Assembly: GCA_963756885.1 (NCBI GenBank)
Contig: CAVWPG010000011.1
Span: forward strand, 510,178-574,177
Length of the DNA stretch: 64,000 bases
Reading direction: 5' to 3'
DNA from: an uncultured Bacteroidales bacterium
Lineage (GTDB): Bacteria > Bacteroidota > Bacteroidia > Bacteroidales > VadinHA17
In this document: positions 16,889 to 57,863 of the stretch, piece after piece
How the letters are laid out: each line of letters starts with the position of its first letter
Position numbering within the stretch: the first letter of the stretch is position 1
Notes under the pieces: model-generated
What the model was told of the DNA's origin: nothing
Database searches by the model: none
Seen by the model: only the letters and a program-made list of their open reading frames with translations
Program-made: the position numbers and the translations under genes

Positions 16889-17220
16889 TACTAAACGGAT
16901 AAATAGACATATTAGCAAGAGATTGCCTTTGGCGAGCTCGGTTCTTCGCTTCATTCGTTTCGCTCAGAATGACAGCCATTTATAGTTTAGGGGGGATGTT
17001 GAAAAAGTCTTTTTGACAGCACAAAGGTTTACGCACTAAGTCAAGCAATTGTAATTTAGATCTTTACGAGAACATTTATGCTTTAGGGAATTTGTGATTA
17101 TTGATATGTCTCGCTGATGTACGCAGATTGAATAACGCTGAGTCCCGCCGATTAAATTCCTTTAATATCCGCGAATCCCGATGGCTATCGGGACTGCGGT
17201 AACCTCTTATCCGTTTAGTA
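16889..17220. mobile_element. MITE-like non-coding repeat, copy 1 (332 bp) with perfect 14-bp terminal inverted repeats
   Basis: The ends are TACTAAACGGATAA and TTATCCGTTTAGTA. The internal roughly 290 bp is near-identical to 25179-25480. Confidence 0.7.
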
Positions 17221-25178: not shown

Positions 25179-25586
25179 TACTAAACGGATAAATGGTCAA
25201 ATTAGTAAGAGATTCTTCGCTTCACTTCGTTTCGCTCAGAATGACAGCCATTTATGGTTTAGGGGGGATGTTGAAAAAGTCTTTTTGACCGCACAAAGGT
25301 TTACGCGCAAAGACAAGCAATTGTAATTTAGATCTTTACGAGAACATTCATGCTTTAGGGAATTTGTGATTATTGATATGTCTCGCTGATGTACGCAGAT
25401 TGAATAACGCTGAGTCCCGCCGATTAAATTCCTTTAATATCCGCGAATCCCGATGGCTATCGGGACTGCAGTAACCTCTGCGGTTATTGGAATTTGACTT
25501 TTTCAACAACCCCTACCAAAAACTCCATAAATACTTGTCATTCTGACCGAAGCGAAGAATCTCAACCTATTAATCGGACAGTAGTG
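25179..25586. mobile_element. MITE-like non-coding repeat, copy 2 (408 bp), flanked by a 12-bp direct duplication
   Basis: AAAATCTTTGAT occurs immediately before 25179 and immediately after 25586. The terminal regions are imperfect inverted repeats (...AGAGATTCTTCGCTTC / GAAGCGAAGAATCTCA...). The core matches 16889-17200. Confidence 0.75.
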
Positions 25587-28638: not shown

Positions 28639-29967
28639 CTACATAATTCTTTTGTTATTTTTAATTGTAACAATGAAAGCATCAGGGTATCCATTTTTTC
28701 TGCAAATACTCTTAAATTCATTGGCAGGAGGCTTGGAGGCAAATTCTCCTACCGAGTAGCAGTATATTTCGTTATATAAATATTCGTATGTGCTATAAGT
28801 TTTTCCTTCAATAATAATCTGGTTATCCGTTCGTTGTTTTTTACTTGTAAGGATCTGGATTCTGTAAATTGTCAAATCCTTAAATTCATCTGCTACAGGT
28901 ATTTCTGTTTCATGAATTTCAGATCTATTCTTTGTTCTGGTTTCTGCTGGCACATTTTTAACCGGATTCTGAGGCAATGTTTCAGAAATGACAGAATCTT
29001 CTATCATATTGCCAGTTTTGTTTAATGAATCTGGTATCTCGCTTTTGCCCTGATTGTTCTCTTTTAAAGCATCTGATAAGGTAGTGGTTGCCTGCATTTC
29101 ATTTCCATTTCCAAAGGCTGAATTATTTTCGCCTCCTTTTGATCTGTTAAAGAAGTAAAACAGGGACAGGATGCCCAGAGCGATTACCACTAAAATGATT
29201 ATGATGGGCAGGACTTTTCTTTTTTTTGATTTTAACGGTGGGGTTTTGTGGATCGCTGATGATGTTTCAGGGACAAGCTTAGCTGTTATAAGTTCACGCA
29301 TGTCCTTTGGAATTTCATCAAGGATCCCTTTCTCTTTCCGGATTTCATCGGGGTTTAGCGAAGGAGGTATTACTGCTTCAGTTTTTATCCCATGAGCCTG
29401 ATCATATGCAGGCACTTCTTCAACAGGTATTTCTGTATCAAATATTTTATTCTGAGGCATCTCTTCTTCGGGCTTCTCCTCAGAAAGAATTTCATATTCA
29501 TGATTAATTTCATGCGGTTGTTCTTCCTCTTTCACAGCATCAGCGGGAATCTCTTCAGCTGGTATTTTTTCCTGAGGTTGTTCTTTATCTTCCAAGACCC
29601 CAGATGAGAACCCATCCTGTGGTATAATTTCCTGAGAAATGTCCTTCTCTGTCAGCAGCTCAGTATATATCCCTTCTTCGGGTTTTATTTCCTGGGACAA
29701 CTTTTTCTCCGGAATCCCATCGGCAGGTGTCCCGGTCAAAGCATTTGTCTCTGCTGGCTTTTCTTCAACAATTTTCATTTCAGAAGGATTCCCGTCATAC
29801 TTTTCCTCAACAGGGTTTTCATCGAATATTTTGTACTTCTCATACAGCTTTTTTAAAAGTGCTTCTTCCTGTCCTTTGTATTTGGTTAACAGGTAACTGA
29901 CTTCCGATACTTTGTCAGGATTGTATTTTAAATAGAAGTCAGTAAGCAACTTTGGATAGTCTTTCAT
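28639..29967 (-). CDS. Operon gene 7: bitopic membrane protein with cytoplasmic Glu/Pro-rich repeats and a C-terminal SPOR-like peptidoglycan-binding domain
   Basis: Helical N-terminal motif LLTDFYLKYNPDKVSEVSYLLTKYKGQEEALLKKLYEKYKI. About 180 aa of degenerate E/P/I repeats. One TM (VLPIIIILVVIALGILSLFYFF). C-terminus YRIQILTSKKQR...YCYSVGEFASKPPANEFKSICRKNGYPDAFIVTI is SPOR-like. Confidence 0.65.
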   Translation of the reverse strand: MKDYPKLLTDFYLKYNPDKVSEVSYLLTKYKGQEEALLKKLYEKYKIFDENPVEEKYDGNPSEMKIVEEKPAETNALTGTPADGIPEKKLSQEIKPEEGIYTELLTEKDISQEIIPQDGFSSGVLEDKEQPQEKIPAEEIPADAVKEEEQPHEINHEYEILSEEKPEEEMPQNKIFDTEIPVEEVPAYDQAHGIKTEAVIPPSLNPDEIRKEKGILDEIPKDMRELITAKLVPETSSAIHKTPPLKSKKRKVLPIIIILVVIALGILSLFYFFNRSKGGENNSAFGNGNEMQATTTLSDALKENNQGKSEIPDSLNKTGNMIEDSVISETLPQNPVKNVPAETRTKNRSEIHETEIPVADEFKDLTIYRIQILTSKKQRTDNQIIIEGKTYSTYEYLYNEIYCYSVGEFASKPPANEFKSICRKNGYPDAFIVTIKNNKRIM

Positions 29968-30027: not shown

Positions 30028-31002
30028 TCAGTGAAGCAGATTGACAATTTCTGAGATTCCAAAATTGCCATCCAGGTTTTGGATTTCAATTTTACCATTT
30101 AACAGATCAAAAAAGAAATCACGGATCTTTCCCATTGAGAGTGATGCTGGTTCTCCATTTGAATCCAGCCCCAAATCATAAGTCATCAGAAGCTGAGAGC
30201 CCAGGCTTGCTGCAGTTAACAAGAAATGATTCTGAAATTTTTCAGTGTCCAGCAGATCTGCAGCCAATACCTTTCCTACCACGGTGTAACTTCTCAGGTT
30301 TTTCTGAGTTTCGTCGTTCGTTAATGTCGTTTTTACTTCATCTGTTTCAATGTTCATTTCTATTTTGCCGGAGTTTGTTGCCTGAGGCAAACCTCTGTAA
30401 AGAGAACCTAAGTCTGCTAAACTTAAATTATAAAATTTTGTACCAGGCAATGTTATTATTTTTTCGATAGAAAAGGCACTGGGCAAGAGTAACCAAACCA
30501 CTTGTGCAGCCTTTATTGATGGAGCATTAAATGTCCCTGCAACCGAATTGGTCAGATCAATGGTTTGAGTTGCAAATACGCCACCAATTACGACGCTGTT
30601 TTCAAGGATAACTTCGTCAGCATAAATACTGCCTGCAACAAATGAATTATAAAGTGTTACGGTTTTGGCGTTTATATCAGAATAAAAAATTATGTTGCAG
30701 TTTGGTGCTCTTGAAACAATGGAATTGGCAGAGCCAACGCACTTTTTAAACAGGATATTTCCACTTGCTTCACTATTTATGTAGAGTTCACTTTGGGCAA
30801 AAACTGCTCCCTGTATTTCTGAATTCCCCTGTTGAATTTCGAGTTTATGGGCGAATACAGGGCCTTCAATTATAGTGTTGCCTTGGATTGAAATTGTTCT
30901 GCTTAGTTCAGAATATTTCTCAGGCAAAATAGAGCCTTTAACCAGATTATCCTTAAGCTGGATATTCATTTCATTAAACCGAATTTCTTTTAGTTCTGTC
31001 AT
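30028..31002 (-). CDS. Operon gene 6: beta-helix-repeat protein (bactofilin-like N-terminal half) with an unassigned C-terminal domain
   Basis: Repeated short strand motifs read IQGNTIIEGPVFAHKLEIQQGNSEIQGAVFAQSELYINSEASGNILF...VAGSIYADEVILENSVVIGGVFATQTIDLTNSVAGTF. No TM helix. Confidence 0.45.
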   Translation of the reverse strand: MTELKEIRFNEMNIQLKDNLVKGSILPEKYSELSRTISIQGNTIIEGPVFAHKLEIQQGNSEIQGAVFAQSELYINSEASGNILFKKCVGSANSIVSRAPNCNIIFYSDINAKTVTLYNSFVAGSIYADEVILENSVVIGGVFATQTIDLTNSVAGTFNAPSIKAAQVVWLLLPSAFSIEKIITLPGTKFYNLSLADLGSLYRGLPQATNSGKIEMNIETDEVKTTLTNDETQKNLRSYTVVGKVLAADLLDTEKFQNHFLLTAASLGSQLLMTYDLGLDSNGEPASLSMGKIRDFFFDLLNGKIEIQNLDGNFGISEIVNLLH

Positions 31003-31012
31003 AATCTTTTCA

Positions 31013-32080
31013 TTAACTATTCATTATGCTCATTACATTTATTGAATCAAGGTCAGCAATTCTCTGAACCATTTCTTTTAACCTGACTGTATGTTGATCA
31101 TGGCCCGGGAAAGCCTTGTTCAATTCTGAATTAAAATGCATTTTCAGATTTGCAGTATAATCCGGCTTTATGGTATTCCAGGAAATTGTATTCGCAGAGA
31201 ATTGCTCATTAAGTGCAGACTTGATCAAATTATCCTGAAATGCAGTCGAAAATTCCGGAATATACAAATCCCTGCCAATTTGATTTTTTTCATTACGGGT
31301 TTCCATGAAACATACGGGAGAATACTGCCGGTCGGTAATGTTCTCATTCAGCATGCTTTTTTGGATAGTGTTATTTAGCTTCTTCTGTTGCCATAAAAAT
31401 ATCTTAGCTTTGTTGAGAGTATCCAAAGCTCTTTTCTTTGCGTAGGATACACTTATTTTTGACTGAAGTTCACCGCTTTCCCTGCCAAAAATTGCAACGG
31501 TATTTACCATGTCATTGCCTATAGTTCTTATAATATGGTCAGCCAATTCTTTTTGAAACAGGAAAGCAGGCTTGTCTAATTCATAAATTCTATTGTAAAG
31601 TTCCTTATTCAAGTCGTCAAAAATTTTATAATACCGGCTCGAAATTCTAAGGAAGTCTCCTTCCATTTGCTTTTTCTTCGAAAGGCAGGATTGGCACAGC
31701 TCTTTCAGGTGCATCAGATGAGCATCAATATTTTGTGAAAGCTCTGCAATCTGCTGACTTATTTCAGAGCGTATAAAGCCAAAGAATCCGCTGATAATTG
31801 TGTCTGCAACTTTTTCAGAGTTGCTGTCAATTGACTCTACCTGTGCAACTTCAGTTGCAACTACTGAACCTGTCAGCAAATTTACATGTGTATTGCACTG
31901 ATCAACGCTACTGTCAAAAGAGTCAGTATCCACATGTATATTGACATTAACAGGAACATATTCTGTATAATGAACTGTTGCTGAAGTAGTACCTCCATTT
32001 TGTGATGCAGGATAAGAGACATTTACAGTTTTTGAACCACTGACAGTTATTGTTTCACTATAACTTCTGGAATAGCTCAT
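31013..32080 (-). CDS. Operon gene 5: unknown-family protein, paralog of gene 4
   Basis: 355 aa. Shares with the 303-aa neighbour the block GFFGFIRSEISQQIAELSQNIDAHLMHL...SSRYYKIFDDLNKELYNRIYELDKP. No TM helix and no catalytic motif seen. Confidence 0.6.
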   Translation of the reverse strand: MSYSRSYSETITVSGSKTVNVSYPASQNGGTTSATVHYTEYVPVNVNIHVDTDSFDSSVDQCNTHVNLLTGSVVATEVAQVESIDSNSEKVADTIISGFFGFIRSEISQQIAELSQNIDAHLMHLKELCQSCLSKKKQMEGDFLRISSRYYKIFDDLNKELYNRIYELDKPAFLFQKELADHIIRTIGNDMVNTVAIFGRESGELQSKISVSYAKKRALDTLNKAKIFLWQQKKLNNTIQKSMLNENITDRQYSPVCFMETRNEKNQIGRDLYIPEFSTAFQDNLIKSALNEQFSANTISWNTIKPDYTANLKMHFNSELNKAFPGHDQHTVRLKEMVQRIADLDSINVMSIMNS

Positions 32081-32091
32081 ACGCTTATCAA

Positions 32092-33003
32092 TTATAGGGT
32101 TAGATAGCCAACAGACTGGAATAATTCCGTAGTTAGATTTCTTACTCTAAGCGGCTTGGAAGAAGAGGAGACGAGTTTGCTGAATTCGCTTATAACTTCC
32201 TGATCCGGAACAGATTTTTCTTTCCATTCAATTTTCTGTAAAAAATCTAAGGCAGAATTCCTGATAGCTGATTTTGAAAAATTATTCAATCCATCTTCAG
32301 GTACAATTATTTCATAGCTGTTATCAGCTTTATTCCTGTTGCAATCGCAAATTGCAATTGGTATGTAGACAGTTGCACTTACAGTAAATCTATCATCATT
32401 TATCAGTATCTGATCGGTAAGTTTCTTTTGATTAATCATTTCGAAGAGAAAACTTCCCATTGATTTTATAACATTCAAGCCACGATATTTTGTATTTGAA
32501 GCAATTATTTTCTGGCTTACCGATAATGATTCCAATTGTGTAACTGGTATTGTCGCAGTGAGGTATTTTGTCCGGTTTGACAGCTTGTCAATTTCTTTGA
32601 CAGCAAAGTCAATGGTGGGTTTATCAAGTTCAAATACTCTCAGTTTTAAATTGGCATTTAAACCATTGAATAATTTCATATACCTGCCGGAAATCATATT
32701 ATAATCTTTTTGCATACGATTTTTTATGCTTAGCAACGCATTTTTTTGCTGTACCAATTGCATTACATGAGAATCGACCTCGCTTTGAAGTTTTGCCATT
32801 TTTTGCGAGATCTGAGAACGAATCAAGGAATAAAACCCTTTATTCACATTGTTGCAGACATGATCTGCTGCTTTTTCTTCTGCCAGGATGACTGCTGTTT
32901 GCATAGCAACTACAGCAACGGTAGTTGCTTCAACATGTCGTGAAACACTTTTTATTTCTGTCGCCATTGGCGTTGTGTCTACAGTATAATTGAATGTTGC
33001 CAT
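32092..33003 (-). CDS. Operon gene 4: unknown-family protein, paralog of gene 5
   Basis: 303 aa. Carries GFYSLIRSQISQKMAKLQSEVDSHVMQL...SGRYMKLFNGLNANLKLRVFELDKP. About 34 of 75 aligned positions are identical to gene 5 by eye. Confidence 0.6.
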   Translation of the reverse strand: MATFNYTVDTTPMATEIKSVSRHVEATTVAVVAMQTAVILAEEKAADHVCNNVNKGFYSLIRSQISQKMAKLQSEVDSHVMQLVQQKNALLSIKNRMQKDYNMISGRYMKLFNGLNANLKLRVFELDKPTIDFAVKEIDKLSNRTKYLTATIPVTQLESLSVSQKIIASNTKYRGLNVIKSMGSFLFEMINQKKLTDQILINDDRFTVSATVYIPIAICDCNRNKADNSYEIIVPEDGLNNFSKSAIRNSALDFLQKIEWKEKSVPDQEVISEFSKLVSSSSKPLRVRNLTTELFQSVGYLTL

Positions 33004-33090: not shown

Positions 33091-35382
33091 TTACAAATCA
33101 TCATCAGAAATATCTGTTTCCTCCTCATTATTCACTGAGCTATCCCTGTCAGAGTCAGACCTATTACCCTCATCTGCCTCATTTTGATCATCCTTGTCCA
33201 TCTCAGTTTTAGCCTTAATTTCAGGTACTTCATCATCAGGTTCTGATTCTTTATCTGAAACCTCTTCATAATTATCCTTCTGAATAGTATCCTCACCAAT
33301 TTCCGGTTCCTCAATTTCCAAATCTGGTTCTTTAATTGCAGCTTCATCTTTTTTGTCATAGTCGGGATTCTCTGCATCCATCACTTGCTCTTCACTTTCA
33401 GGGTTGGGTTTTACGTCAGGGTTTTCAATATTCTCCGGATCAGAAATCTCACCATTTGCTTTAATATCATTTTCATCAATATTTTCAGGGCTTCCCGCAG
33501 GTAAATCTTGCCCCATATTATTACCTTGTGCATCTTGATCCCCGTCAAGATCCGTCAGAGAGTTCTTTGCTATAACTGGCAGATTCAGGGATAAATGCTC
33601 ATAAGTGATCTCTTCAACGTTTGGGATCGGAGGAAGATCTGAAATTTTTGCAAAAAGCGGATTAACACCGATAAGTGGCTTTCTTCTGCTTTCCAGGTTA
33701 TTTGCTTCACTTGCTGCCACTGCTGTATCTTTTGAGTTCCCATCACGAAGCAATGCATCGTAATAGTCAATGTGTTCGAATTTCTCTGCTTTTAAATCAA
33801 TATCTTCCTTGAGTCTCTCCATAAAGTTTTCAAAATCGAGCTGGACATTTTGAAATTCTCTTGATTGCAATTCAAAGGCTGCAAAAACCTCAGCTGAATT
33901 TTGAGTGGCAGAAACAACTGTTGAATCAAGGGAACCGCCTGACTCAGCCATGCTGTCTTCAGTTTTTTTCAAGGAAGTCAGGGTATTATATGCTGCAACA
34001 TAGTCTCTCAGACTGGCCCTCATCAAATTTATCAGGTCAGCACTTTCGGAGCGGTTTCTTCCATAGAAGTCTTCAGTATCCTGATGCCATTTATTCAGGT
34101 AACTGATCTTTTGGTCCTTGATATGGTTATATATTTTAAGTCTTTCAATCCTTGTTTCATTCATAAGATTTTGAACAATTGGAGCAACGATTTCTTCATG
34201 TATCTGGTGAACTCCAAACGGGAAGTTTGTGCTGCTGCCGTCTTCGCCCGTCCACATTCCGGAGATTAGGTTAAATTTAACTTTTGAACTTTCCTTTAAC
34301 TGGAAGGGGACATATTCTGATGCCGATTCCCCATAATTGAAATCTTCATTTCTGATTCTTTCTATTTCTGATGCTTCAAGTACAGGAGAATAATGGTTAT
34401 ATGGAGATTTAAGAATTTTGTACAGGAGTTTGTTGGATTCGAAAATAATTTTATCTGTTGAAGCAACTTTTAAAGCAGATATTGCCTGAACTGAATTTGC
34501 CATTGTTATCATCAAGCCTCGCAGAACATCTTCAAATTGAGCAGTATCTCTTGACAATGAATCTTTGAGTTTGTTTAATTCCTGGAATTTGGAGATTTGA
34601 GTACTGTAATTATTTATATCGAATACCTCAAAAACCGGAGATTCTTTTGGAACCTCTGTCGTGGCAAACTCCTTTATAAAATTTAAATAACTGCTATTAT
34701 TTTCAACCAGAGGCAATTCAACAGAGATTACATCCAGATCATCCATGCAATAAGAAATTGTCCGTAAGGATCTTTCCAGTCTCCCAAAGTAATCGTGTTG
34801 ATTTAAGTGTTGCATTGAACGGGAATATTGTTGAGTTTCGATCTCTTCAATTTCTTCTGAACCCTCCACAATAGGGGCCTCATCAGATAACTTTTCCAAT
34901 TCAGAAATCGTCTTTATCAATAAATCGTTTTGTTTTGAAAGTTGTAGTTTTACCTCTGACTCACCTACCATACCGGTATGGTCAACAATGAAACTTTTAT
35001 TCTCATATTTAATCTGACTGGCAACCGGAACATATGCAATCCCCAGCTTACTGACCCTGTAGTCTCTGAATATCTCTTTATGCTGCTTTTTAAATACATC
35101 AATCCTTTCATCCAGCGATATGATTTTCTTTTTTAAACCATTCTCCTTGACTGTAAAATAAATAAAAGTGAATATTAGGATGCATAAGAACCATTTAAGG
35201 CGCCTGGTTTTTAAAAGGTCAGTATCCAAAATGGATAGTTCTTCCTTAAGTTTCGCAATCTCTTTTTCAATATGTTCTTCCTCGTGTACTATTTTTTCAG
35301 CCATTTGCACATAATAGTTGAATAATATCTTTGCCTGATCCTGGAAAAGATTGTTTGATTCAGGAGTAATTTTGCCTTTCAT
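33091..35382 (-). CDS. Operon gene 3: 763-aa protein with N-terminal coiled coil, one TM helix, a large unassigned domain and a roughly 170-aa Asp/Glu-rich tail
   Basis: EKEIAKLKEELSILDTDLLK is followed by WFLCILIFTFIYFTV (TM). The C-terminus runs from DLDGDQDAQ to NNEEETDISDDDL and is dominated by D/E/P/N. Confidence 0.6.
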   Translation of the reverse strand: MKGKITPESNNLFQDQAKILFNYYVQMAEKIVHEEEHIEKEIAKLKEELSILDTDLLKTRRLKWFLCILIFTFIYFTVKENGLKKKIISLDERIDVFKKQHKEIFRDYRVSKLGIAYVPVASQIKYENKSFIVDHTGMVGESEVKLQLSKQNDLLIKTISELEKLSDEAPIVEGSEEIEEIETQQYSRSMQHLNQHDYFGRLERSLRTISYCMDDLDVISVELPLVENNSSYLNFIKEFATTEVPKESPVFEVFDINNYSTQISKFQELNKLKDSLSRDTAQFEDVLRGLMITMANSVQAISALKVASTDKIIFESNKLLYKILKSPYNHYSPVLEASEIERIRNEDFNYGESASEYVPFQLKESSKVKFNLISGMWTGEDGSSTNFPFGVHQIHEEIVAPIVQNLMNETRIERLKIYNHIKDQKISYLNKWHQDTEDFYGRNRSESADLINLMRASLRDYVAAYNTLTSLKKTEDSMAESGGSLDSTVVSATQNSAEVFAAFELQSREFQNVQLDFENFMERLKEDIDLKAEKFEHIDYYDALLRDGNSKDTAVAASEANNLESRRKPLIGVNPLFAKISDLPPIPNVEEITYEHLSLNLPVIAKNSLTDLDGDQDAQGNNMGQDLPAGSPENIDENDIKANGEISDPENIENPDVKPNPESEEQVMDAENPDYDKKDEAAIKEPDLEIEEPEIGEDTIQKDNYEEVSDKESEPDDEVPEIKAKTEMDKDDQNEADEGNRSDSDRDSSVNNEEETDISDDDL

Positions 35383-35406: not shown

Positions 35407-36117
35407 TTAGTCTGAAAAAACCTGCTTACGTTCTTTACACGTCCTTTCACAATTTTTAATATTGTCCTGAATATTATCAATGTTTAGAGGAAGGTTAACA
35501 AAACAGTCATCTAACTTTCTCATTTCTTCAACGAACTGTTTTTCAAGTTCGGTTGCTCTGTTATTATTACATGGAGAAAGGAATCTGATATTTTCCTGTA
35601 AATTATTTATTCTTTGAATTATATCTTCCGGGATATCTGTCATCCTATCTAATTTTAACTGCAATTCCCTTGTTGTCTTTTTCATTTCATCAATTTTAAT
35701 CAGTATCTGTTGTTCTTCCTGATGAATCTCATGTACTTTTTCAGAAGAAGAAAATGCCAGGAACAGACCTGTAAGAAGAAGGAAAAGAAGAATCCCATGG
35801 ATAATCAATTGAGAGGTGAAAGAGATAGGATTGACGGTATTGAAAATAATCATTGCCCCAGCTCCGGTTAGCATATACAAGGTGGTAAAGGCCCATCTTA
35901 TCCCGATTGAGCCTATTTTTTTCTGTGGTTTGTCTTTTAGGTCAATCCATGGAATAAAGATGTCGAAAAAAGAAAAAATATAGATTAATGAAGTCACAGC
36001 AATATTAAGCTTAAGTATTTCAGGTTGAAGATTTTTCCCGAAATGAATCAAGCAGATGATTATCAATCCTTCCCCCAATAGAAAGAGTAACAGGGAAAAT
36101 ATTCTTTTAGCATTCAT
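35407..36117 (-). CDS. Operon gene 2: four-TM membrane protein with a C-terminal cytoplasmic coiled coil
   Basis: Hydrophobic helices at about aa 6-25, 37-56, 72-92 and 100-122. These are followed by EKVHEIHQEEQQILIKIDEMKKTTRELQLKLDRM and further heptad-like sequence. Confidence 0.6.
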   Translation of the reverse strand: MNAKRIFSLLLFLLGEGLIIICLIHFGKNLQPEILKLNIAVTSLIYIFSFFDIFIPWIDLKDKPQKKIGSIGIRWAFTTLYMLTGAGAMIIFNTVNPISFTSQLIIHGILLFLLLTGLFLAFSSSEKVHEIHQEEQQILIKIDEMKKTTRELQLKLDRMTDIPEDIIQRINNLQENIRFLSPCNNNRATELEKQFVEEMRKLDDCFVNLPLNIDNIQDNIKNCERTCKERKQVFSD

Positions 36118-36133: not shown

Positions 36134-37384
36134 TTATCGTTTTAAACCGCATTTTGGACAGAATTTAACGTTTGAGGCCAACGCTGTACCGCATCTGGTA
36201 CATTTATCATCTGCCTGCTGTTGCCCGCAATTACCGCAGAATGAGCTGCCAGGTGCAAGAGGAGAATTGCAATTTGAACATAGGCTAAGATCTCCTTGTA
36301 ATGTAGCACCGCAACTCACACATCGTTTTGCGTTTCTATCATTATCTGTACCGCACTTTGGACAGGCATCATACGGATCGCCGCAATGCGGGCAGAAGCG
36401 ATTGGTACTTGCAAATTTCCTTGAGCAATTTGAGCAATAAACTTCCCTGATCTGATTTGCCGGTTGAGTTGCGCCCCCTTGTGGGGACTGATTTGAGCCT
36501 CCAAACGAAGGCTGGGTGTATTGAGGTTGCAAAACACCTCCGGCGCCGCCCAAACCTCCTATCATATTGCTGGCTATTACAGCACCCAATATTCCGGAAT
36601 TATTGTTTGAGATGCCATCGATGGCATTATTAGCAGTACCAAATGCCTGCTCCTGTTGCCATGTATAACCTCCAATGGATTGGGCACTTTGTCTGGAAAT
36701 TGCATCCAATACCCTTCTTCCAACATCGGTAGAGTTATCGACTTCAATGCTTGTAATATAGAATTGTGTCAATTCAAGTCCGATATTTTCCCAGAAGGGG
36801 AGCATAATATTTTTTAAATGCTCTGAAATACTCTCAAGGTGTGCTGAAATCTGCTTTAACCCAATTCTGTTTTTTATCATGAATTGTAAAAGAGTCGATT
36901 TAGTCTTGGATGAAAACTCTCCAAAAAATTGATCAGTTAGGTCATTTTGATCAAATATATTTTTGGTTCCGACTATTTTGATAAGGAATCTTTCAGCATC
37001 GTTTATTTTTAACCCGTACCTGCCATTGGCCACAAGTGGAATTCCTGTATTGTAATCCGCATCATGAATATCCATTCTGTTTATAGCCCAATCAATATTG
37101 TAAGGTTGCAACTTATTCACAAACCATACTTCGGCTGTAAATGGATTTTTACCCCCGAAAGGGAGACCGTACAAGCTTCTTAACACCGGAAGATTTTCAG
37201 TATTAAGGGTATGTTTGCCCGGCCCAAATTTCCCAATGATTTGTCCTTTGGAAAATAATATTGCTTCTTGTGATTCCTGTACAATAAGCTGAGTAAACGT
37301 ACTGAGATTGGTCTCGGGATATCTGAAAGCATATATAGTTTGATTTCCCTGAGGTGACCAGTTGACCAGATCAATTATTGCCAT
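36134..37384 (-). CDS. Operon gene 1: SPFH/band-7-like (YdjI / COG4260-type) domain fused through a Gly/Gln-rich linker to four zinc ribbons
   Basis: The N-terminus IDLVNWSPQGNQTIYAFRYPETNLSTFTQLIVQESQEAILFSKGQIIGKFGPGKHTLNTENLPVL...AEVWFVNK matches the YdjI-type SPFH pattern. The linker is GGLGGAGGVLQPQYTQPSFGGSNQSPQGG. The C-terminus carries eight CxxC pairs (CSNC, CPHC, CPKC, CVSC, CSNC, CGNC, CTRC, CPKC). Confidence 0.75.
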   Translation of the reverse strand: MAIIDLVNWSPQGNQTIYAFRYPETNLSTFTQLIVQESQEAILFSKGQIIGKFGPGKHTLNTENLPVLRSLYGLPFGGKNPFTAEVWFVNKLQPYNIDWAINRMDIHDADYNTGIPLVANGRYGLKINDAERFLIKIVGTKNIFDQNDLTDQFFGEFSSKTKSTLLQFMIKNRIGLKQISAHLESISEHLKNIMLPFWENIGLELTQFYITSIEVDNSTDVGRRVLDAISRQSAQSIGGYTWQQEQAFGTANNAIDGISNNNSGILGAVIASNMIGGLGGAGGVLQPQYTQPSFGGSNQSPQGGATQPANQIREVYCSNCSRKFASTNRFCPHCGDPYDACPKCGTDNDRNAKRCVSCGATLQGDLSLCSNCNSPLAPGSSFCGNCGQQQADDKCTRCGTALASNVKFCPKCGLKR

Positions 37385-38135
37385 AACTAATTAATTAATC
37401 ATTTATATTTAAAATAAAAATCGCGTTTTTGGAATTGCAAGAAAGTGATTCCCTGGATTTTGAACGCTGCACTATTTGTAAAGATACAATCAGGTAAATT
37501 ATGTGTTTTATTAAAGCAAAACAGAAAATGCATTGAGCTAAAGCAAATCCTCCGAAATGCCTTATGGTATAATCAACCAACATATTTGCTATATTTCACC
37601 ATGAGATGACTCAATGTAAGTATTCAAATAATAAGTATTTATCTCCATTATAGATCGATCATGTAATTCCAGTCAATTTTAACCAGGATGTCCGGCTAAC
37701 GCAGGTAAATACTTTTTCGAAAACTTCAAACTTAGGTTGTAGATACTTTCTTTAAATTGAATTGCGGCGTTTTACTCAAAATTAAATAATGCAAAGCAAA
37801 GTTCAAGACTTCGGATAGGATAAAATATTAACAATCATTTTGTTAATAAATATTTGATTCAAGACCTTATTAGCCATCATATCTCTATAAAGTAAGGCTT
37901 CGTATGCATACATTTAAATATTGTAATAATCAATATTCCAGTAAATTAATCAAGCAGGATGATGATTTGGAAAAAGGTGTCTCATACATACTGTAAAATA
38001 GCGTGACTATAATAAATATGGCTGCAATAATTAAGCCTGTGTTGGATGGAGAGTATATGCATCCCGTCTACATGATTCATCAGATAACATTTATTTATCA
38101 AAATGTTTAGCAGATCGTACAGCAAAAGATCAAAG

Positions 38136-38207
38136 AAATATTTCGGCGAGGGTGACGCTGTGGGTAAAGCATTGGATATTCAGGTAGAGGGAAGTTTTGA
38201 AACCAGA
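38136..38207 (+). pseudogene. Short remnant of an FtsX/MacB-type permease gene
   Basis: KKYFGEGDAVGKALDIQVEGSFET matches KKYFGNGDAVGKTFDVQVEGSYET of the 60748-63141 product. DNA identity is roughly 80 percent by eye, and no flanking coding continuity remains. Confidence 0.5.
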
Positions 38208-38267
38208 TTCAGGCGATTGTTGTGTTTTTTGTTCTTTCGGAACAATAAAGTGTCCCCCGGTTCAGGA

Positions 38268-38672
38268 GTTTGGCAAGTGTACTTGTTGAAGAACCGGGCC
38301 CCGCTTTGGTGGAATGCGCCCGCCGAAGGCAATCTCTTGCTGATTTAACCATTTATCCGTTTAGTAATGAAAAGCTATACAAGTTATAATTTCAACCGGC
38401 AGGGCATCTTATGTGGCATAGACCTGTACGGGATTATGACCCAAAAATCTTTCCTGGGTAAAATCTGGTTGCTTTTATTACCTGCTTTGCCAATTGATGT
38501 TTATTTTTGCCAGATTTATTTTCAGAAATATGCAAAATCAGGGTAATCAGACTTCAGCTGCAATAGATAGCGATATAGCAGGGAAAACAGTATTTTATAT
38601 ATTATTATATATTAGCTTTTATCATCTCTTTAACGACACTATTCAGTATATTATCTCTTATATATATGGCAT
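38268..38672 (+). repeat. Direct repeat copy A: duplicate of the fsr upstream region plus the first ~48 codons (mutated, truncated)
   Basis: Aligns base-for-base with 45485-45889 at an offset of 7217. There is 1 mismatch in the first 276 nt and at least 17 substitutions in the last 129 nt. The track ORF 38494-38688 is the mutated fragment (FYILLYISFYHLF versus FSILLSISFSHLL). Confidence 0.9.
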
Positions 38673-38689
38673 AAGATGGTTGGTTTGAA

Positions 38690-38927
38690 CACTTTCGGCA
38701 ATGAAGATTTGCATTTTTATATTTATCTTAAATTCATGAGTTTAACACTCATTTTAAATGGTCAGTTTGTACTGGCAGGAGGTGGTTACAGCTTACGTAT
38801 AAACCATAATCATGATGTGGCAGAAAATACTGCAATAATGTACTCGCTTCTTGGGTGTTGTGCTGAAACAGATGTAAATCCCAGAGAAGTGGCTGACAGA
38901 GGTGATAATAAGAATACCTTATTATAA
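38690..38927 (+). mobile_element. IS66-family transposase C-terminal remnant
   Basis: The ORF reads ...SLTLILNGQFVLAGGG...AENTAIMYSLLGCCAETDVNPRE. This resembles the IS66 TnpC C-terminal pattern RPLxLGRKNxLFAGS...AxxAAxxYSLxxTxKxNGxxP. It is truncated and lacks the catalytic part. Confidence 0.55.
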
Positions 38928-39379
38928 GAACGATTACAGCCTTGATATGGCAGTATCTCCTGCCTCATAACTGGAAGGGAGCATGTGATACTCCAGAAAA
39001 CTCTAATGGAAATCCAATAATTAATGGATATCATTGGAAAAAGTTAAACTGTCCAATCATTTTCTAAAGAATTTCAAAGAACTGCAACAAAGTTGTACTG
39101 GAAATTAAACATGGCAAGATAACTATTTATGAGCTAACTATGTAAGAGTTGGATAAGAGATGTCTAGGGAGAAAAGGATGATGGCATAAGGTTAATAGCT
39201 TAAGGAAGAGGTAAGGAGATTTTCTGGGATATGAAATAGGCTGAGAACTGCTTAAAGATTTGGATTTCTTTATACTTTCAGCTTAAAGATTAAAAAAGGG
39301 CAGCAGGTTGAAGGGGAACAATGATCTCTTTTTTATCTTTAGGGGCGAATAATTATTTTTAAATTAAAACTGCTACATC

Positions 39380-39466
39380 ATGAGTAATTTTAAGGAACTG
39401 AAAGTCTGGCAGAAAAGCATGAAGGCAGAACAGGTAGTTTTAAAATATATCTCTAATTATATTTTC
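39380..39466 (+). pseudogene. Possible N-terminal stub of a four-helix-bundle (23S rRNA-intervening-sequence-type) protein
   Basis: MSNFKELKVWQKSMKAEQV resembles the FKDLKVWQKA start of that family, but the ORF stops after 28 aa. Confidence 0.35.
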
Positions 39467-39484
39467 TGATTAATATATATCAAT

Positions 39485-42400
39485 ATGTTTAGTGTTAAGG
39501 TTATTATAGATTTTGTAATTAATAACTTCCAAATTAGTCTTTCTTTCAATTTGAAAAGTATGTTTATAATTTGCTTTTTAATTCTTTCAATCTTCTCCTC
39601 TTCAATAAGCATCTATGCTCAAAATTACAATGTAAAGATCTTTACAACTAATGACGGATTAGCAAATAATAATGTCAGGGCAATAGCTGAAGATAGTTCT
39701 GGATTTCTTTGGATAGGTATCTGGGATGGATTAAGTAGGTTTGATGGACATGAGTTCAGAAACTACTTTCATGTAACTGATGATTCTATCTCTCTTTTGT
39801 ATTTTACAATCAGAAAGCTCTGTGTGGATTGTGAAAATAATCTTTGGATTTTCACGGAAAAGAGGTGAGTAGTTTTATTTAACAGGAATGCAGAAAATTT
39901 CAAACTAGTAAAAGAAATTAATGGCATGTCTTTGGAAGACGATATAGACATATGCGTAGATGAGAATGGTTATTTTTGGATAATAGATCAGAATGGATTG
40001 TACAGACACGAGCTTAAAGCAGATAAATATGAGAAATTAAGGATACTTCGCTCTGACGGATACAAATTAAATCTTGATGAAGCTTCTGCCTGGATATAGT
40101 CATTGATAATAAGAAGTTGTGGATTGCAAGCATGTAGTATGTGAAAGAATTTACTCTTGGTAATGGATTAGTTACATTAGAAAAAAGTTTTTCTCTTGTC
40201 AGAAAATATTACAGGGTTATCTATTTTGATCATATTGAATGGTTTAGATTCTTTCAATCAGAATAAGGAGAAAAATGGGTACTTTCAAATGTTGGACTTT
40301 TTAAATTCAAAGAAGAGTCTGCAATATTAGAAGAATTCAATGGGGAAACTGAGCTTAAAGACTTAAAGAACAGGAATAGAATTGTCTGGGGTAAGATGAG
40401 TAATGGTATTTTCTTTTATTCTACTGAGAACTAGGAACTCATACACGTTCAGTCAGAAATCTTACAATTGCTAATTTCAATGATGTGTGCAAACTAGAAT
40501 TATATTTGGCTCTCTAACGTATCAAATGATGGAGTTTTGCTAGGGTTATATAGAGTGGTATTTTCACTAAAATTCTTCACAAATACCTTTATAGAAACAT
40601 CTAATTCAAAACAGATAGCAGTTTACTCTATAGCTCAGGATATAAACAGAGATATTTGGGTAGGAGTCAGGGGGAACAATCATATAATTAAAATAAATAA
40701 ATCAGGAGGGATTAAAGGCATAGATTTTTTAGATCAGGATTTCTATAGCAAATCAGGTTATATCAGATCATTGATTACTGTTCAGGATGGCATCTGGGTA
40801 GGATATTACATGGGTATGTTACAATTTTATGATTACAAAACAGGTCAATTTGTTGATCATCATATCGGATTTTTCACTTTTAGGGCAATATCTCTAAATA
40901 ATGAGAATAATATAATTATTGGCATCACAGGCAAACTATTACTTTATAACTCTCGTAACAGTAAGCTCAAAACACTATGGGTACAACAAGAAAAGGCACT
41001 TCTATCTATAAGGTATATTATGACGCTTCTGGAGTCATATGGGCAGGGATGTCAGACAGTAAACTTCTTAAATACACTATTAAATAAGGAGATTAACATG
41101 TATATAAAATAAATAATGATAATTGTAATATAGAAGACATACAAATAGATGACAACGGTGAATTGTGGTTGGCTCTTCTTGGAGGTGGTGTCTGCAGGTA
41201 TAATATAGATACAGGAGTAACTAAATATTATACTACTTCATCAGGTTTATCTAATAATACAACTTACTGTATATTAAAAGATAAATCAGGTGGAATTTGG
41301 GTATCAACCAATAATGGGATATCATAATAAACTCTAAAACGGGGTTAATAAGAAACTTTAATCAAACTGATGGTCTTTTAATCTCGGAATTTAATTACAG
41401 TGCAAGTTATGCAAACAGCAACGGTGAATTTTTCTTTGGAGGGATGGGGGGGTTTGATAGATTATATCTTGATAGTATTGAAAACGCCATAACGGAAACC
41501 ATAAAATACAAGGTTCTATTAACAGATTTCAGTGTATCAGGGGAAAGAAAGGTGCTTACAAAAGCACTCAATGATTCAGATACAATAACACTTGCTAAGG
41601 GAGAGACCAATTTTCAGCTTTCTTTTTCATCTAGCGATTTTCTAAATTCTGATAAAACACATTTCAGATACATGTTAAGCTATATAAATCAGAACTGGAT
41701 TGAGACTGACTCACATGTAAGGAGTGTTAACTTTTACAACCTCAAACAGGGTAGCTATTTCTTTGAAATTCAAGTAACTAATTTAAATGGAGAATGGACA
41801 GCAGATAAAAAGATAGTTTTCAATATTAAGCCTTTCTTCTATCAGACATTGTTATTTCATATTTCAGCTCTGTTGTTTATCATTTTAGTTTTTGTCGGCA
41901 TTATTGTTTTATATATCAGGCAGTTTAAACAAAAAGAGAAGCAAAAACAAGATACTCTTAAACTACAGTCTCTCCGTGGTCAGATGAATGCTCATTTTAT
42001 TTTCAACTCGCTAAATTCTATTAATTACTTTATTTCCAATAATGATAAATTGTCCGCTAACCGGTATATAGCTGATTTTTCACGATTAATCAGGTCTATA
42101 CTTTCGAATTTTGGTAAAGATTATATTACATTTAAGAACGAAGTTGACTCAATAAAGGATTATGTAAATATTGAATATTTGAGATTTGGAGATAAATTCG
42201 ATTTTGAGGTTATTGTAGATCTGTCTAATTATAATTCTGATTTTGAAATATTTACAGGCTTAGTTTAGCTATTTATAGAAAATGCTATCTGGCATGGAGT
42301 GAGAGCTCTGGAATCACGAAAAGGGATTATTAAAATTTATTTTTATTGTGTTGGAACAAATAGGATAAAATGCTCTGTTGAGGATAACGGAATTGGATGA

Positions 42401-42600
42401 GATGATTCGCTTAACAGTAAAACTGATCATGATAATCATAAATCAAGAGGTATCGATATTGTTAATGAAAGGTTACAGATAATAAGCAAATTAAGGGGAG
42501 TTAACTATGCTCTCGAAATATCTGATCTTTACTATGATAAGGTAGATACCGGAACTAAGGTTGAAGTTGATATATCTGTAAAATGGATAAAAAGGAGTAT
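39485..42600 (+). pseudogene. Decayed sensor kinase: Reg_prop/Y_Y_Y beta-propeller sensor plus LytS-type His_kinase and HATPase, with many frameshifts and in-frame stops
   Basis: Recognisable pieces are TNDGLANNNVRAIAEDSSGFLWIGIWDGLSRFDGHEFRNY (Reg_prop), GELWLALLGGGVCRYNIDTGVTKYYTTSSGLSNNTTYCILKDKSGGIWVSTNNGIS, a TM segment, LRGQMNAHFIFNSLNSINYFI (His_kinase) and LFIENAIWHGV...VEDNGIG (HATPase). These lie in at least four frames, and TAG, TGA and TAA all occur in-frame. Confidence 0.75.
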
Positions 42601-42603
42601 AAA

Positions 42604-43346
42604 ATGATAAGGGCAATTGTTATTGATGATGAAAAACTATATAGTGAAGTCATATGCAATTATTTGAAAGAGTATTGTAGTGATGTGCAGGTTATTAATA
42701 CAGCTTCATCTGTTAAGGCAGGCTATACTATTATTAAAAGATTTAAGCCTGATCTTGTTTTTCTAGACATTGAACTTGGTGAGGGTACAGGTTTCGACCT
42801 GCTAAGAATGTTTGATATGATAACATTTAAAATAATTTTTGTAACGGCATTTTCAGAACATGCAATGAAAGCATTCAGGGTTAATGCTATAGATTATTTG
42901 CTAAAAACAGTTAAAATTGATGAATTGAAAGATGCAGTAGAAAGAGTAAAAGTAACCAGATGGGGATACGATTATCAGGATAAATAAGAACTTTCATTAA
43001 AAGTATATCTCTAAAAACATCAGGTGAGCTAAAGCTTATAATTTCTCACCTAAAAGGATATGATATTTTAAAAGTGAACGAAATTATAATGTGAAAAGCT
43101 GATGGGTATTGCACAGAATTTTTTCTTACAGGCAAGAGAGTGGTCATCAGCGCAAAAAATCTGAAACAATACGAAACTTTTCTTCTAGGACAATTCTTCT
43201 TTAGGTCCCATAACTCGTACCTTATTAATTTAAATCACATTTGCAGCTACACGAAGCAAGGAGTTATTGATCTGACTGAAGGAAGAAAAGCTAGCCTTTT
43301 AGATCAAAACAGAAATAAATTAATACAAATACTCAAGGCCAGATAA
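42604..43346 (+). pseudogene. LytTR-family response regulator, disrupted
   Basis: The receiver is intact (MIRAIVIDDE...PDLVFLDIELGEGTGFD...FVTAF). The LytTR domain continues in another frame (ILKVNEIIM*KADGYCTEFFLTGKRVVISAKNLKQYE...FFFRSHNSYLINLNHI) with a TGA where the family has Cys. Confidence 0.7.
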
Positions 43347-45445: not shown

Positions 45446-45583
45446 TACTACTGTCCGGCTAAGGTTTGAGATTCTGAGCGAAGCGTTTGGCAAGTGTACT
45501 TGTTGAAGAACCGGGCCCCGCTTTGGTGGAATGCGCCCGCCGAAGGCAATCTCTTGCTGATTTAACCATTTATCCGTTTAGTA
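45446..45583. mobile_element. Short (138 bp) member of the same MITE-like family, inverted orientation
   Basis: TACTACTGTCCGGCTAAGGTTTGAGATTCTGAGCGAAGCG matches the right arm of copy 2. The end GCAATCTCTTGCTGATTTAACCATTTATCCGTTTAGTA matches the reverse complement of the left arm. A left-truncated duplicate sits at 38268-38366. Confidence 0.55.
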
Positions 45584-45889
45584 ATGAAAAGCTATACAAG
45601 TTATAATTTCAACCCGCAGGGCATCTTATGTGGCATAGACCTGTACGGGATTATGACCCAAAAATCTTTCCTGGGTAAAATCTGGTTGCTTTTATTACCT
45701 GCTTTGCCAATTGATGTTTATTTTTGCCAGATTTATTTTCAGAAATATGCAAAATCAGGGCAATCAGACTTCAGCCGCAATAGCCAGCGATATAGCAGGG
45801 AAAACAGTATTTTCCATATTATTATCCATTAGCTTTTCCCATCTCCTTAACGACACCATTCAGTCCATTATCCCTTCCATATATCCTGT
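45485..45889 (+). repeat. Direct repeat copy B (functional fsr promoter region and 5' coding end)
   Basis: See copy A at 38268-38672. Confidence 0.9.
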
Positions 45890-56179: not shown

Positions 56180-57099
56180 TCAAACATATAACGCTCTTTC
56201 CAGAGACCTGACCATTTCCTTATGCTTTTTGGAATTTTCTTTCTTCAATCTTATAATATTCTGTAACTTCCAGTTAATAGCAGGGAGTTCTTTAGCGTTC
56301 CTGACTTTGAATTTTCCCCAATCAGGAATTCCTTCTTTAAAACTCATTAAGAGCAACCTGTCTTTTTCAGTAAGCTTTAAATGAATATCATTTACTAATT
56401 GTTCTCTGGTTCGTTCGAAATCCTCATAGGTAAATGGGATATCGACCATACCTGAAAACTGCGTTTTAAAAGCATGTCGTTGATCAAGATAAGTTGGCCG
56501 GATAACCTCATTGATTGGCCTCATATGCGACAGAAGTGCAATAAGAAATCCAACCTTTATATCCTCAGCAAGACCTTCGTTATCCAGAAGTAATCTTACA
56601 TCAAAAAGGTCACGCGGATGTTGCCGGTCTAACGCGGCGCACAATTTTCCACCGTATAATTCAGCAATAGGAACGACGTTAATAGCTGCAAATCTTCCAA
56701 AAGTCTCTTCTACAACTTTATGAAGCCTCATAAGACTTGGCTTATTCAAACTCCCTCGTGTTATTGTATTAACCTCAATTTTAATCTGGGCTCCAGGTAA
56801 CTGACAATTGATCTTAACATCCTGGCCTTATCGTGAAGCGGGCGTTACACTGATTCCGGGAATCGATTTTTCCAGGCAGCTTTAATCCGGCCTAATCCAT
56901 CAGAAATAGTTCTTAATGCCGTTTCTCTGTCATCTATAGGCAGATAAGTCAAATCAATATCAACAGATAACCTTGGCATATTTCGTATGAACAGGTTTAT
57001 TGCTGATCCTCCTTTAAGAGCAAATATTGTTTCTTTTGCAACAAATGGTATTGTCTGCAATAACAAATCGACTTGTGCTTTATACTTTGGATCGATCAT
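56180..57099 (-). pseudogene. AbiEii/AbiGii-family nucleotidyltransferase toxin (type IV TA), disrupted
   Basis: The N-terminal 84-aa ORF reads IFALKGGSAINLFIRNMPRLSVDIDLTY. The C-terminal 189-aa ORF reads AINVVPIAELYGGKLCAALDRQHPRDLFD. The connecting piece (INCQLPGAQIKIEVNTITRG) lies in a third frame behind a TAA. Confidence 0.75.
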
Positions 57100-57863
57100 A
57101 ATTGAGCTAATTCCCGGGGTACTGTAATCCGAAACTTCGGATCATAAACTCCATTCTTAACGACACTACGATCTCCCTGACCAAGATCAACAGACGACAC
57201 TTCAAGGAATTGAGCCCATTGATGATTTGCCTTATTTGACATATACAAGAATAGCCGCTTTACTTTTATGGAATTGCATCCTTCAAGGAGCTTTTGCAAT
57301 ATACCAGGCCTCAGATTAACTAATCCGGACATTATTTGATAAGTCTCCATCAGATCAAGATTCTCGGGAGTAAGATAGAGACATTCGAATATTGCTCTTT
57401 CAGTAGAAGCTATGGTTAGAGAGAATTGTTTCTCGTTATAATCATCCATTCCAACACCCTTGGGGAGAAATGATGTTCTGGTATGATTTATGGGTTCTCT
57501 CCAGGAGTACTTTTTAAACCATGCGGGTATTCTGGTTTTCAAGTCGGAGAAAAGATATATTGATTCTGCACCTGTACGAACATAATGGGAGAATCCTAAC
57601 ATCGATAAGGCTGTAAGCCCTCCGATATATAATGGAAGATTGGCTTGTTTCTGTAATGAATATAGTGCTCCCTGCCATGTAACCGTTTCGTTCGGGCGTT
57701 TGAATGCTCCAACTCCAACAGATTCCAGCCAGCCACTTTTTCTATATCGTTGTTGCAGGTCATAGGAAAAACCATTAGCTTTGAGCCACGAAGCAAGAAT
57801 TATTGTTCCCGGAAGATGTAAATCCAAGAGTTTCTTTAATTTTATTTCATTATTAGTACTCAC
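57096..57863 (-). CDS. AbiEi-family antitoxin/transcriptional regulator (type IV TA)
   Basis: The 255-aa ORF contains LLDLHLPGTIILASWLKANGFSYDLQQRYRKSGWLESVGVGAFKR. It overlaps the toxin start by 4 nt. Confidence 0.75.
   Translation of the reverse strand: MSTNNEIKLKKLLDLHLPGTIILASWLKANGFSYDLQQRYRKSGWLESVGVGAFKRPNETVTWQGALYSLQKQANLPLYIGGLTALSMLGFSHYVRTGAESIYLFSDLKTRIPAWFKKYSWREPINHTRTSFLPKGVGMDDYNEKQFSLTIASTERAIFECLYLTPENLDLMETYQIMSGLVNLRPGILQKLLEGCNSIKVKRLFLYMSNKANHQWAQFLEVSSVDLGQGDRSVVKNGVYDPKFRITVPRELAQL

Follow-up and report, generated by a model that had tools for sequence, protein, structure and literature searches.

A tandem pair of paralogs from an undescribed protein family within a conserved gene cassette encoding an SPFH protein

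Results

Two tandem genes of one undescribed family

Within a 64,000-nucleotide (nt) stretch of DNA from an uncultured Bacteroidales bacterium (assembly GCA_963756885.1, contig CAVWPG010000011.1; hereafter the window), two adjacent minus-strand open reading frames (ORFs) encode proteins of 303 amino acids (aa; paralog A, 33003..32092) and 355 aa (paralog B, 32080..31013). Judged by their sequences, A and B go back to an ancient duplication within one undescribed family. They are separated by 11 nt in the window and belong to a conserved six-gene cassette in which they form a fixed, co-evolving pair. Homolog searches returned 1094 matches for A and 783 for B; since each has hundreds of conserved homologs, both are real genes.

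Direct comparison of the two proteins leaves little doubt about their relationship. BLASTP aligned A with B at E = 7e-31 (31% identity over 237 aa), and their Smith-Waterman score of 283 far exceeded that of 300 shuffles of B (39.8 ± 6.0; z = 41), so that the clearly alignable core described in the initial annotation of this DNA was upheld by a formal pairwise test. In this core (A 56-129, B 98-171) 34 of 74 positions are identical, in line with the earlier by-eye estimate of about 34 of 75. The VDT segment recognized upstream of the core is indeed common to both proteins, at A8 and B50, and the stretch TVSATVYIPIAICDC is located at A207. Profile-profile alignment of the two subfamilies (alignment A1, 26 sequences of A; alignment A2, 33 sequences of B) joined 285 columns, A 5-297 to B 47-344, with a probability of 99.9% and E = 1e-34. 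Homology therefore covers the whole of A, including the C-terminal halves, which had been taken to differ. The main distinguishing feature of B is its ~45 additional N-terminal residues.

Searches of A and B against Pfam, NCBIfam, PADLOC and PHROGs gave nothing significant, and a diverse family alignment of 138 sequences (A5) had no significant family match in these libraries or among Protein Data Bank (PDB) sequences. Foldseek searches with AlphaFold2 models likewise produced no significant match and no ESCRT-III chain, in accord with the initial failure to recognize the family. At E ≤ 1, the Pfam scan of the 138 relatives gave only scattered coiled-coil noise (Baculo_PEP_C in 27 members, Fib_alpha in 16, FliD_C in 14); PspA_IM30 (PF04012) and Snf7 (PF03357) were outside the 25 most-matched Pfam families, a list that reaches down to 3 members. 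With PADLOC, the same relatives showed scattered weak coiled-coil matches (LeoBC 11, ZorA 8, best E = 9e-5). NCBIfam gave no consistent match among them, and the weak matches of nine of the 138 to sll1863_fam lead only to an uncharacterised stress protein. Homologs of A and B are annotated as "hypothetical protein" in the source databases.

The lone marginal match to the PDB came from phmmer, which aligned B 105-219 as a single sequence with residues 22-139 of Escherichia coli PspA (4whe) at E = 0.024. PDB profile searches with A1, A2 and A5 were empty and the PspA match was gone, and hhalign against E. coli PspA returned probabilities of 0.3% for A5 and 3.5% for A2. As these profile searches and the Pfam scan of the 138 members were all negative, we discounted the match as evidence of homology to PspA and retained it as a functional analogy only.

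An exhaustive HMMER search of 1.84 billion cluster representatives (50% identity) delimited the family to 657 proteins at E ≤ 1e-3, with 421 of them at E ≤ 1e-30. The best 150 of the 657 members show no bleed into any larger family; they range from 146 to 402 aa and are mostly ~300-400 aa long, the shorter ones being apparent fragments. When 185,579 species genomes were scanned, limited by pattern, 74 loci emerged, most of them in Bacteroidota (Bacteroidales, Marinilabiliales, Flavobacteriales, Chitinophagales and Sphingobacteriales) and the remainder in Fibrobacteria, Acidobacteriota and Clostridia metagenome-assembled genomes (MAGs). The cassette is carried by a small fraction of species, with a patchy distribution; plasmid, phage genome and IMG/VR collections contained neither A/B relatives nor copies of the cassette.

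A fixed A-B pair in a conserved six-gene cassette

In the window, A and B lie in a minus-strand run, g1-g2-g3-A-B-g6-g7, whose consecutive genes are 10-87 nt apart. This tight run of ORFs on either side bears out the earlier placement of the pair at the centre of an operon. When the window proteins were searched with tblastn against the 74 loci, g1 to g6 were colinear in virtually all loci of sufficient length, and all-against-all clustering of the ORFs in these loci recovered the six cassette families with no further conserved neighbour. More divergent family members occur in the same cassette. The seventh gene of the run, g7 (29967..28639, minus strand), follows g6 after 60 nt and encodes a 442-aa protein with one transmembrane (TM) segment and an acidic, repeat-rich N-terminal half. 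Because g7, like the flanking genes of the window, is never found beside the cassette in the 74 related loci, we consider it a lineage-specific passenger outside the cassette.

B follows A in 67 of 72 loci, which come from four phyla; the two genes are a median of 6 nt apart, with spacings between -11 and 25 nt except in one outlier. Contig ends truncate the remaining loci. Each paralog from the loci of Clostridia, Fibrobacteria and Acidobacteriota is nearer to its ortholog in the window than to the other paralog, which indicates that the duplication predates the spread of the cassette.

Variations on this arrangement and its surroundings were noted, among them at L089 and L082 (4311-5396). 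A five-gene variant in locus L089 (1773-6381) passes directly from g1 to a g3-like gene and has no g2, and in several loci a small ORF of 87-106 aa overlaps the start of g1. The cassette of Labilibaculum filiforme has a tyrosine integrase directly upstream of it, and in L077 a methyltransferase, UvrD and AAA_15 are found near it. Flanks differ between genomes: 148 flanking ORFs sampled from 62 loci comprised four integrases, two transposases and otherwise ribosomal, biosynthetic and transport genes, with no clear enrichment of defence genes in this sample.

To relate the cassette proteins to one another, we compared their distance matrices over 48 complete loci and the window, using partial correlation to remove the cassette-wide trend. 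A and B showed the highest correlation (r = 0.969) and the highest partial correlation (0.617) of all cassette pairs, followed in partial correlation by A-g6 (0.46), g1-g3 (0.44) and B-g6 (0.38). These values fit one sub-module of A, B and g6 and another, membrane sub-module of g1, g2 and g3. The initial suggestion that A and B may be a hetero-oligomeric building block is consistent with both the A-then-B order and this top co-evolution signal.

Predicted architecture of A and B

A opens with a short N-terminal strand (FNYTVDT) and a conserved, hydrophobic helix rich in Ala, Val and Thr (24-41). After the invariant Gly56 come a long amphipathic helix (57-126) closing in ELDKP, a second helical region and a C-terminal α/β domain of ~100 aa. 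B has an A-like layout preceded by a predicted β-hairpin of ~45 aa. Across the 138 diverse members, the Gly of the GF(Y/F) motif is the only invariant column, and the long helix that follows it has a strong hydrophobic periodicity of 3.6-3.67 residues. No TM segment or signal peptide was found in A or B. Both proteins are basic: the isoelectric point (pI) of A is ~9.2 in the window, with a median of 9.3 among the loci, and the median for B is 8.2.

AlphaFold2, run on a 59-sequence alignment combining both subfamilies, modelled A with a predicted local distance difference test (pLDDT) score of 61 and a predicted template-modelling score (pTM) of 0.24, placing helices at 11-126, 162-202, 241-257, 268-275 and 282-296. 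The model of B (pLDDT 70, pTM 0.23) has strands at 3-22 and 31-50, which form the predicted β-hairpin of the N-terminal extension, then a helix at 58-188 (pLDDT >85 only over ~100-160), a helix at 203-244, two short strands and three helices. Together, the models and the hydrophobic periodicity predict that the conserved core is helical.

The core had initially been described as a long helical hairpin. Its helical character is supported by B 100-160 and by the periodicity, but the hairpin is not: AlphaFold2 draws one long helix at low global confidence, and covariation was too noisy to decide. Mean-field direct-coupling analysis (DCA) of 504 family sequences was dominated in its first run by gap and subfamily artefacts. 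After restriction to ungapped helical columns (effective sequence number ~167), few i+3/i+4 pairs ranked high, for which reason we do not trust the long-range pairs; couplings in the C-terminal domain alone looked coherent.

A is the more conserved of the two proteins, with a mean column identity of 91% among the 26 close homologs of A1, against 69% for B. It is ~77% identical between MAGs and isolates labelled as different Bacteroidota orders. Such very strong conservation is as expected of a tightly packed assembly subunit, and it makes A a good structural target.

Other proteins encoded in the cassette

As far as sequence comparison reaches, five of the six cassette proteins belong to no described family, and g1 is the only firm anchor. 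This gene (37384..36134, minus strand) encodes a soluble SPFH protein of 416 aa with a Gly/Gln-rich linker and ~4 C-terminal zinc ribbons. It belongs to PF13421 (Band_7_1; E = 7e-36, 124.3 bits against a cutoff of 24) and also matches Zn_Ribbon_1 and DZR; the same domains are precomputed on its orthologs in 10 contigs. No TM segment was found in g1, which is present and colinear in 63 of the 74 loci at 38-86% identity.

The next two genes encode putative membrane proteins. The product of g2 (36117..35407, minus strand; 236 aa) is predicted to have 3-4 N-terminal TM helices, with TM-like segments at 3-28, 37-58 and 97-126, and a coiled-coil tail in the cytoplasm. Conservation within the cassette is lowest for g2, which was found in 65 of the 74 loci and has no family match in Pfam, NCBIfam, PADLOC or PHROGs. 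The g3 gene (35382..33091, minus strand; 763 aa), present in all 74 loci, encodes an N-terminal coiled coil, a short hydrophobic segment at ~63-79, a conserved region of ~500 aa and a variable acidic tail with 36% Asp+Glu. Its product has a pI of 4.5, which is also the median, and no Pfam or PDB match was obtained for g3 in a search that covered 28 orthologs. Alignment of the family profile with g2 and g3 by hhalign was negative and gave no sign that either is a relative of A and B.

The last member, g6 (31002..30028, minus strand; 324 aa), combines a bactofilin-like β-helix in its N-terminal half (~40-160) with a conserved C-terminal domain. In the window it matches Bactofilin (PF04519) with 17.8 bits and E = 0.004, below the gathering score of 27.9 bits. 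Among 30 orthologs, 18 match the same family sub-threshold (best E = 1e-4), and the top match of the g6 profile in the PDB is BacA (2n3d, E = 0.17). These matches suggest that g6 is related to the bactofilin β-helix while falling short of PF04519 membership. It was found in 65 of the 74 loci and is acidic (median pI 5.2). No recognisable enzyme domain is present in any cassette protein, and PADLOC (PADLOC-DB v2) returned nothing significant for the six proteins of the window (one insignificant match, g1 to Unk_05, E = 0.032, 12 bits).

Discussion

A possible scaffold at the cytoplasmic membrane

The closest parallel to the cassette is pspA-ydjGHI, an envelope-stress module of Bacillus subtilis. 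[quoted passage not shown] The ydjGHI operon has been renamed samGHI, with YdjI as SamI (bioRxiv 10.64898/2026.02.06.704340). Both systems unite in one operon two membrane proteins and a soluble SPFH protein of the Band_7_1 type that carries zinc ribbon(s) at its C-terminus (PMC8581546, PMC11237479). Each also has a soluble helical protein, which self-assembles in B. subtilis and does so by hypothesis only for A and B. The cassette differs in that A and B are not detectably PspA homologs, in having two paralogous helical proteins and the bactofilin-like g6, and in gene order. Moreover, g2 and g3 lack any Pfam match, whereas TPM and zinc-ribbon/NTF2-like domains have been described for YdjH and YdjG (PMC11237479).

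As the best-supported reading, we propose that A and B could form an obligate heteromeric helical scaffold with g6 at the cytoplasmic face of the membrane, organised by the SPFH protein and g2/g3 in a manner comparable to PspA; we regard this as possible, though somewhat short of an even chance. Each paralog would consist of N-terminal strand(s), ~190 residues of amphipathic helix around one invariant Gly, and a small α/β C-terminal domain. The two cytoplasmic proteins would co-assemble as an obligate heteromer and polymerise with the bactofilin-like g6 into a scaffold that lines the inner membrane on its cytoplasmic side. Recruitment and organisation of this scaffold would fall to the SPFH protein g1 and the putative membrane proteins g2 and g3, and the module might stabilise or remodel the membrane during envelope stress. 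A and B would thereby occupy the place of PspA in pspA-ydjGHI (samGHI), without detectable PspA homology. The opposite charges of the basic A and B and the acidic g3 and g6 are in favour of such an arrangement.

Several observations weigh against this proposal. Assembly, membrane binding and stress induction of A and B are all inferred. The predicted fold of A and B comes from poor AlphaFold2 models (pLDDT 61 and 70, pTM ~0.23), and the parallel with PspA draws on gene context by analogy only, since PspA homology failed every profile test. Nor do g2 and g3, judged from the domain descriptions and the absent Pfam match, appear to be homologs of YdjH or YdjG. The A-B mirror-tree signal may partly reflect the shared fold of paralogs and not contact; because paralogs may share rate patterns for other reasons, co-evolution of A and B is not proof of interaction. 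Finally, the patchy spread, the variable flanks and the integrases sometimes found alongside would suit a trait that is accessory or mobile, which could equally be a conflict system.

This last possibility, that the cassette is a horizontally mobile anti-phage or abortive-infection system whose A and B are membrane-permeabilising effectors restrained by an SPFH and bactofilin-like scaffold, appears unlikely to us. The ~77% identity of A among labelled different orders in a patchy distribution with unrelated flanks, the integrase adjoining the cassette in Labilibaculum, the methyltransferase, UvrD and AAA_15 near it in L077, and the conserved hydrophobic helix 24-41 of A would all suit such a system. 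The six proteins, however, lack a significant PADLOC match and the 138 A/B relatives give only coiled-coil noise there; the sample of 148 flanking ORFs shows no clear enrichment in defence genes; the cassette is absent from the plasmid, phage and IMG/VR collections; and no sensor, nuclease, NTPase or other enzymatic part is recognisable. That A and B are a bipartite α-helical pore-forming toxin of the ClyA/YaxAB/XaxAB type we consider very improbable. Those toxins are likewise tandem paralogs with long helical stalks, and A and B, at 300-355 aa, share the tandem arrangement, have long helices and include a hydrophobic segment; the predicted hairpin of B drew weak Foldseek matches to pore-toxin stems. 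These matches are insignificant (all E > 0.4) and confined to a generic hairpin, and the pair has no signal peptide or secretion gene and is embedded in what looks like a cytoplasmic membrane-scaffold operon. NCBIfam includes xenorhabdolysin models, and neither NCBIfam nor Pfam models of ClyA/YaxAB/XaxAB-type toxins matched A or B.

Two further explanations retain a structural role for the pair. If A and B were adaptors or spacers of a bactofilin-centred cytoskeletal element that serves shape, polarity or the positioning of membrane complexes, the module would be constitutive and not a stress response. That A, B and g6 are the tightest co-evolving sub-module, that g6 is bactofilin-like and that all parts look structural speak for this reading, to which we assign a low probability: occurrence in few species and in unrelated contexts is unusual for a core morphogenetic element, and the bactofilin assignment is sub-threshold. 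Alternatively, A and B could be extremely divergent members of the ESCRT-III/PspA/Vipp1 superfamily, with the SPFH protein recruiting their composite A-type/B-type filaments. A contextual link between SPFH and ESCRT-III is known (PMC8581546, PMC10936438, PMC11237479), A and B are helical, and their pairing recalls A/B-type ESCRT-III heteropolymers (PMC7619361). The phmmer match of B 105-219 to 4whe (E = 0.024) points the same way, but it was lost with family profiles and in hhalign. With PspA_IM30 and Snf7 outside the top 25 Pfam families of the 138 relatives, no ESCRT-III chain returned by Foldseek, and N-terminal strands and an additional α/β C-terminal domain that ESCRT-III lacks, we find this quite improbable.

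Relation to known membrane and cytoskeletal systems

A and B share with the ESCRT-III superfamily (PspA, Vipp1/IM30, Snf7/CHMP, CdvB) the helical character, the pairing of paralogs, which in archaea and eukaryotes build heteropolymers, and the recurring genomic link to SPFH proteins (PMC7619361, PMC10936438). In contrast to ESCRT-III, A and B are longer, show no profile similarity and carry strands at the N-terminus, one invariant Gly-Phe motif and an α/β domain at the C-terminus. The g6 protein resembles bactofilins (PF04519; BacA, BacM, CcmA) in its repetitive β-helix region, its weak Bactofilin matches and its best PDB profile match, BacA; it differs in scoring below the gathering threshold and in its ~324-aa length with a large conserved additional C-terminal domain. 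Pairing with A/B-like proteins is not known for any bactofilin; in the literature we found no paper mentioning both SPFH and bactofilin and none describing this cassette. As in the Flotillin/NfeD and HflK/C-FtsH assemblies, the gene for the SPFH protein is accompanied by genes for its own membrane partners, and the protein presumably serves to organise a microdomain or cage in the membrane. Unlike those systems, the cassette has no NfeD, protease or flotillin-type coiled coil, and g1, a member of the Band_7_1 branch, has no membrane anchor.

The cassette spans at least four phyla, and the one studied relative of its YdjI-type SPFH protein recruits PspA, which acts in membrane repair. Should A and B prove to be the cargo or partner of this SPFH protein, SPFH platforms would organise more than one kind of membrane-coating polymer, and the pair would be a second, independent bacterial example of paired-paralog helical scaffolds. 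The few cultured carriers, among them Labilibaculum filiforme 59.16B, Capnocytophaga sp. oral taxon 863 F0517, Dysgonomonas termitidis CCUG 66188 and Bacteroidales bacterium CF, would then offer a handle on Bacteroidota envelope biology. A wider claim seems to us rather unlikely on present evidence: that the cassette is an enzyme-free, horizontally spreading membrane-scaffold system whose core is a new A/B heteromeric polymer, with a fold unrelated to ESCRT-III, bactofilin, SPFH or other known bacterial cytoskeletal families, docked on an SPFH platform.

Other features of the window

Upstream of g1, ~2.1 kilobases (kb) at 37385-39480 hold no called gene, and Rfam models at gathering thresholds found nothing there. 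This region includes one copy of a direct repeat of ~300-400 nt (38268-38667 and 45485-45884; 99% identical) that surrounds a 7.2-kb segment with a G+C content of 31-34% and high GC skew, encoding a Y_Y_Y histidine kinase and a LytTR regulator. The repeat may have arisen by duplication of a promoter or 5' gene region, or its two copies may mark where an inserted element ends. The Y_Y_Y/His_kinase gene at 39485-42604 (plus strand) is split into four frame segments, implying three frameshifts. Contig L075, which matches the window at 98.8% identity, has the gene intact (1041 aa), and the protein segments of the window are only 90-94% identical to that copy. The split gene is either a pseudogene or an assembly error; the cassette genes are intact. 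A second pair of direct repeats (16954-17207 and 25226-25479), 254 nt long and 97% identical, is spaced 8.3 kb apart.

Elsewhere in the window, an AbiEi-type antitoxin/regulator gene (PF11459, E = 2e-54) adjoins a 357-aa ORF without a Pfam match (57096-57863 and 58316-59389, both on the minus strand). This ORF may be the unrecognised partner in a type IV toxin-antitoxin pair.

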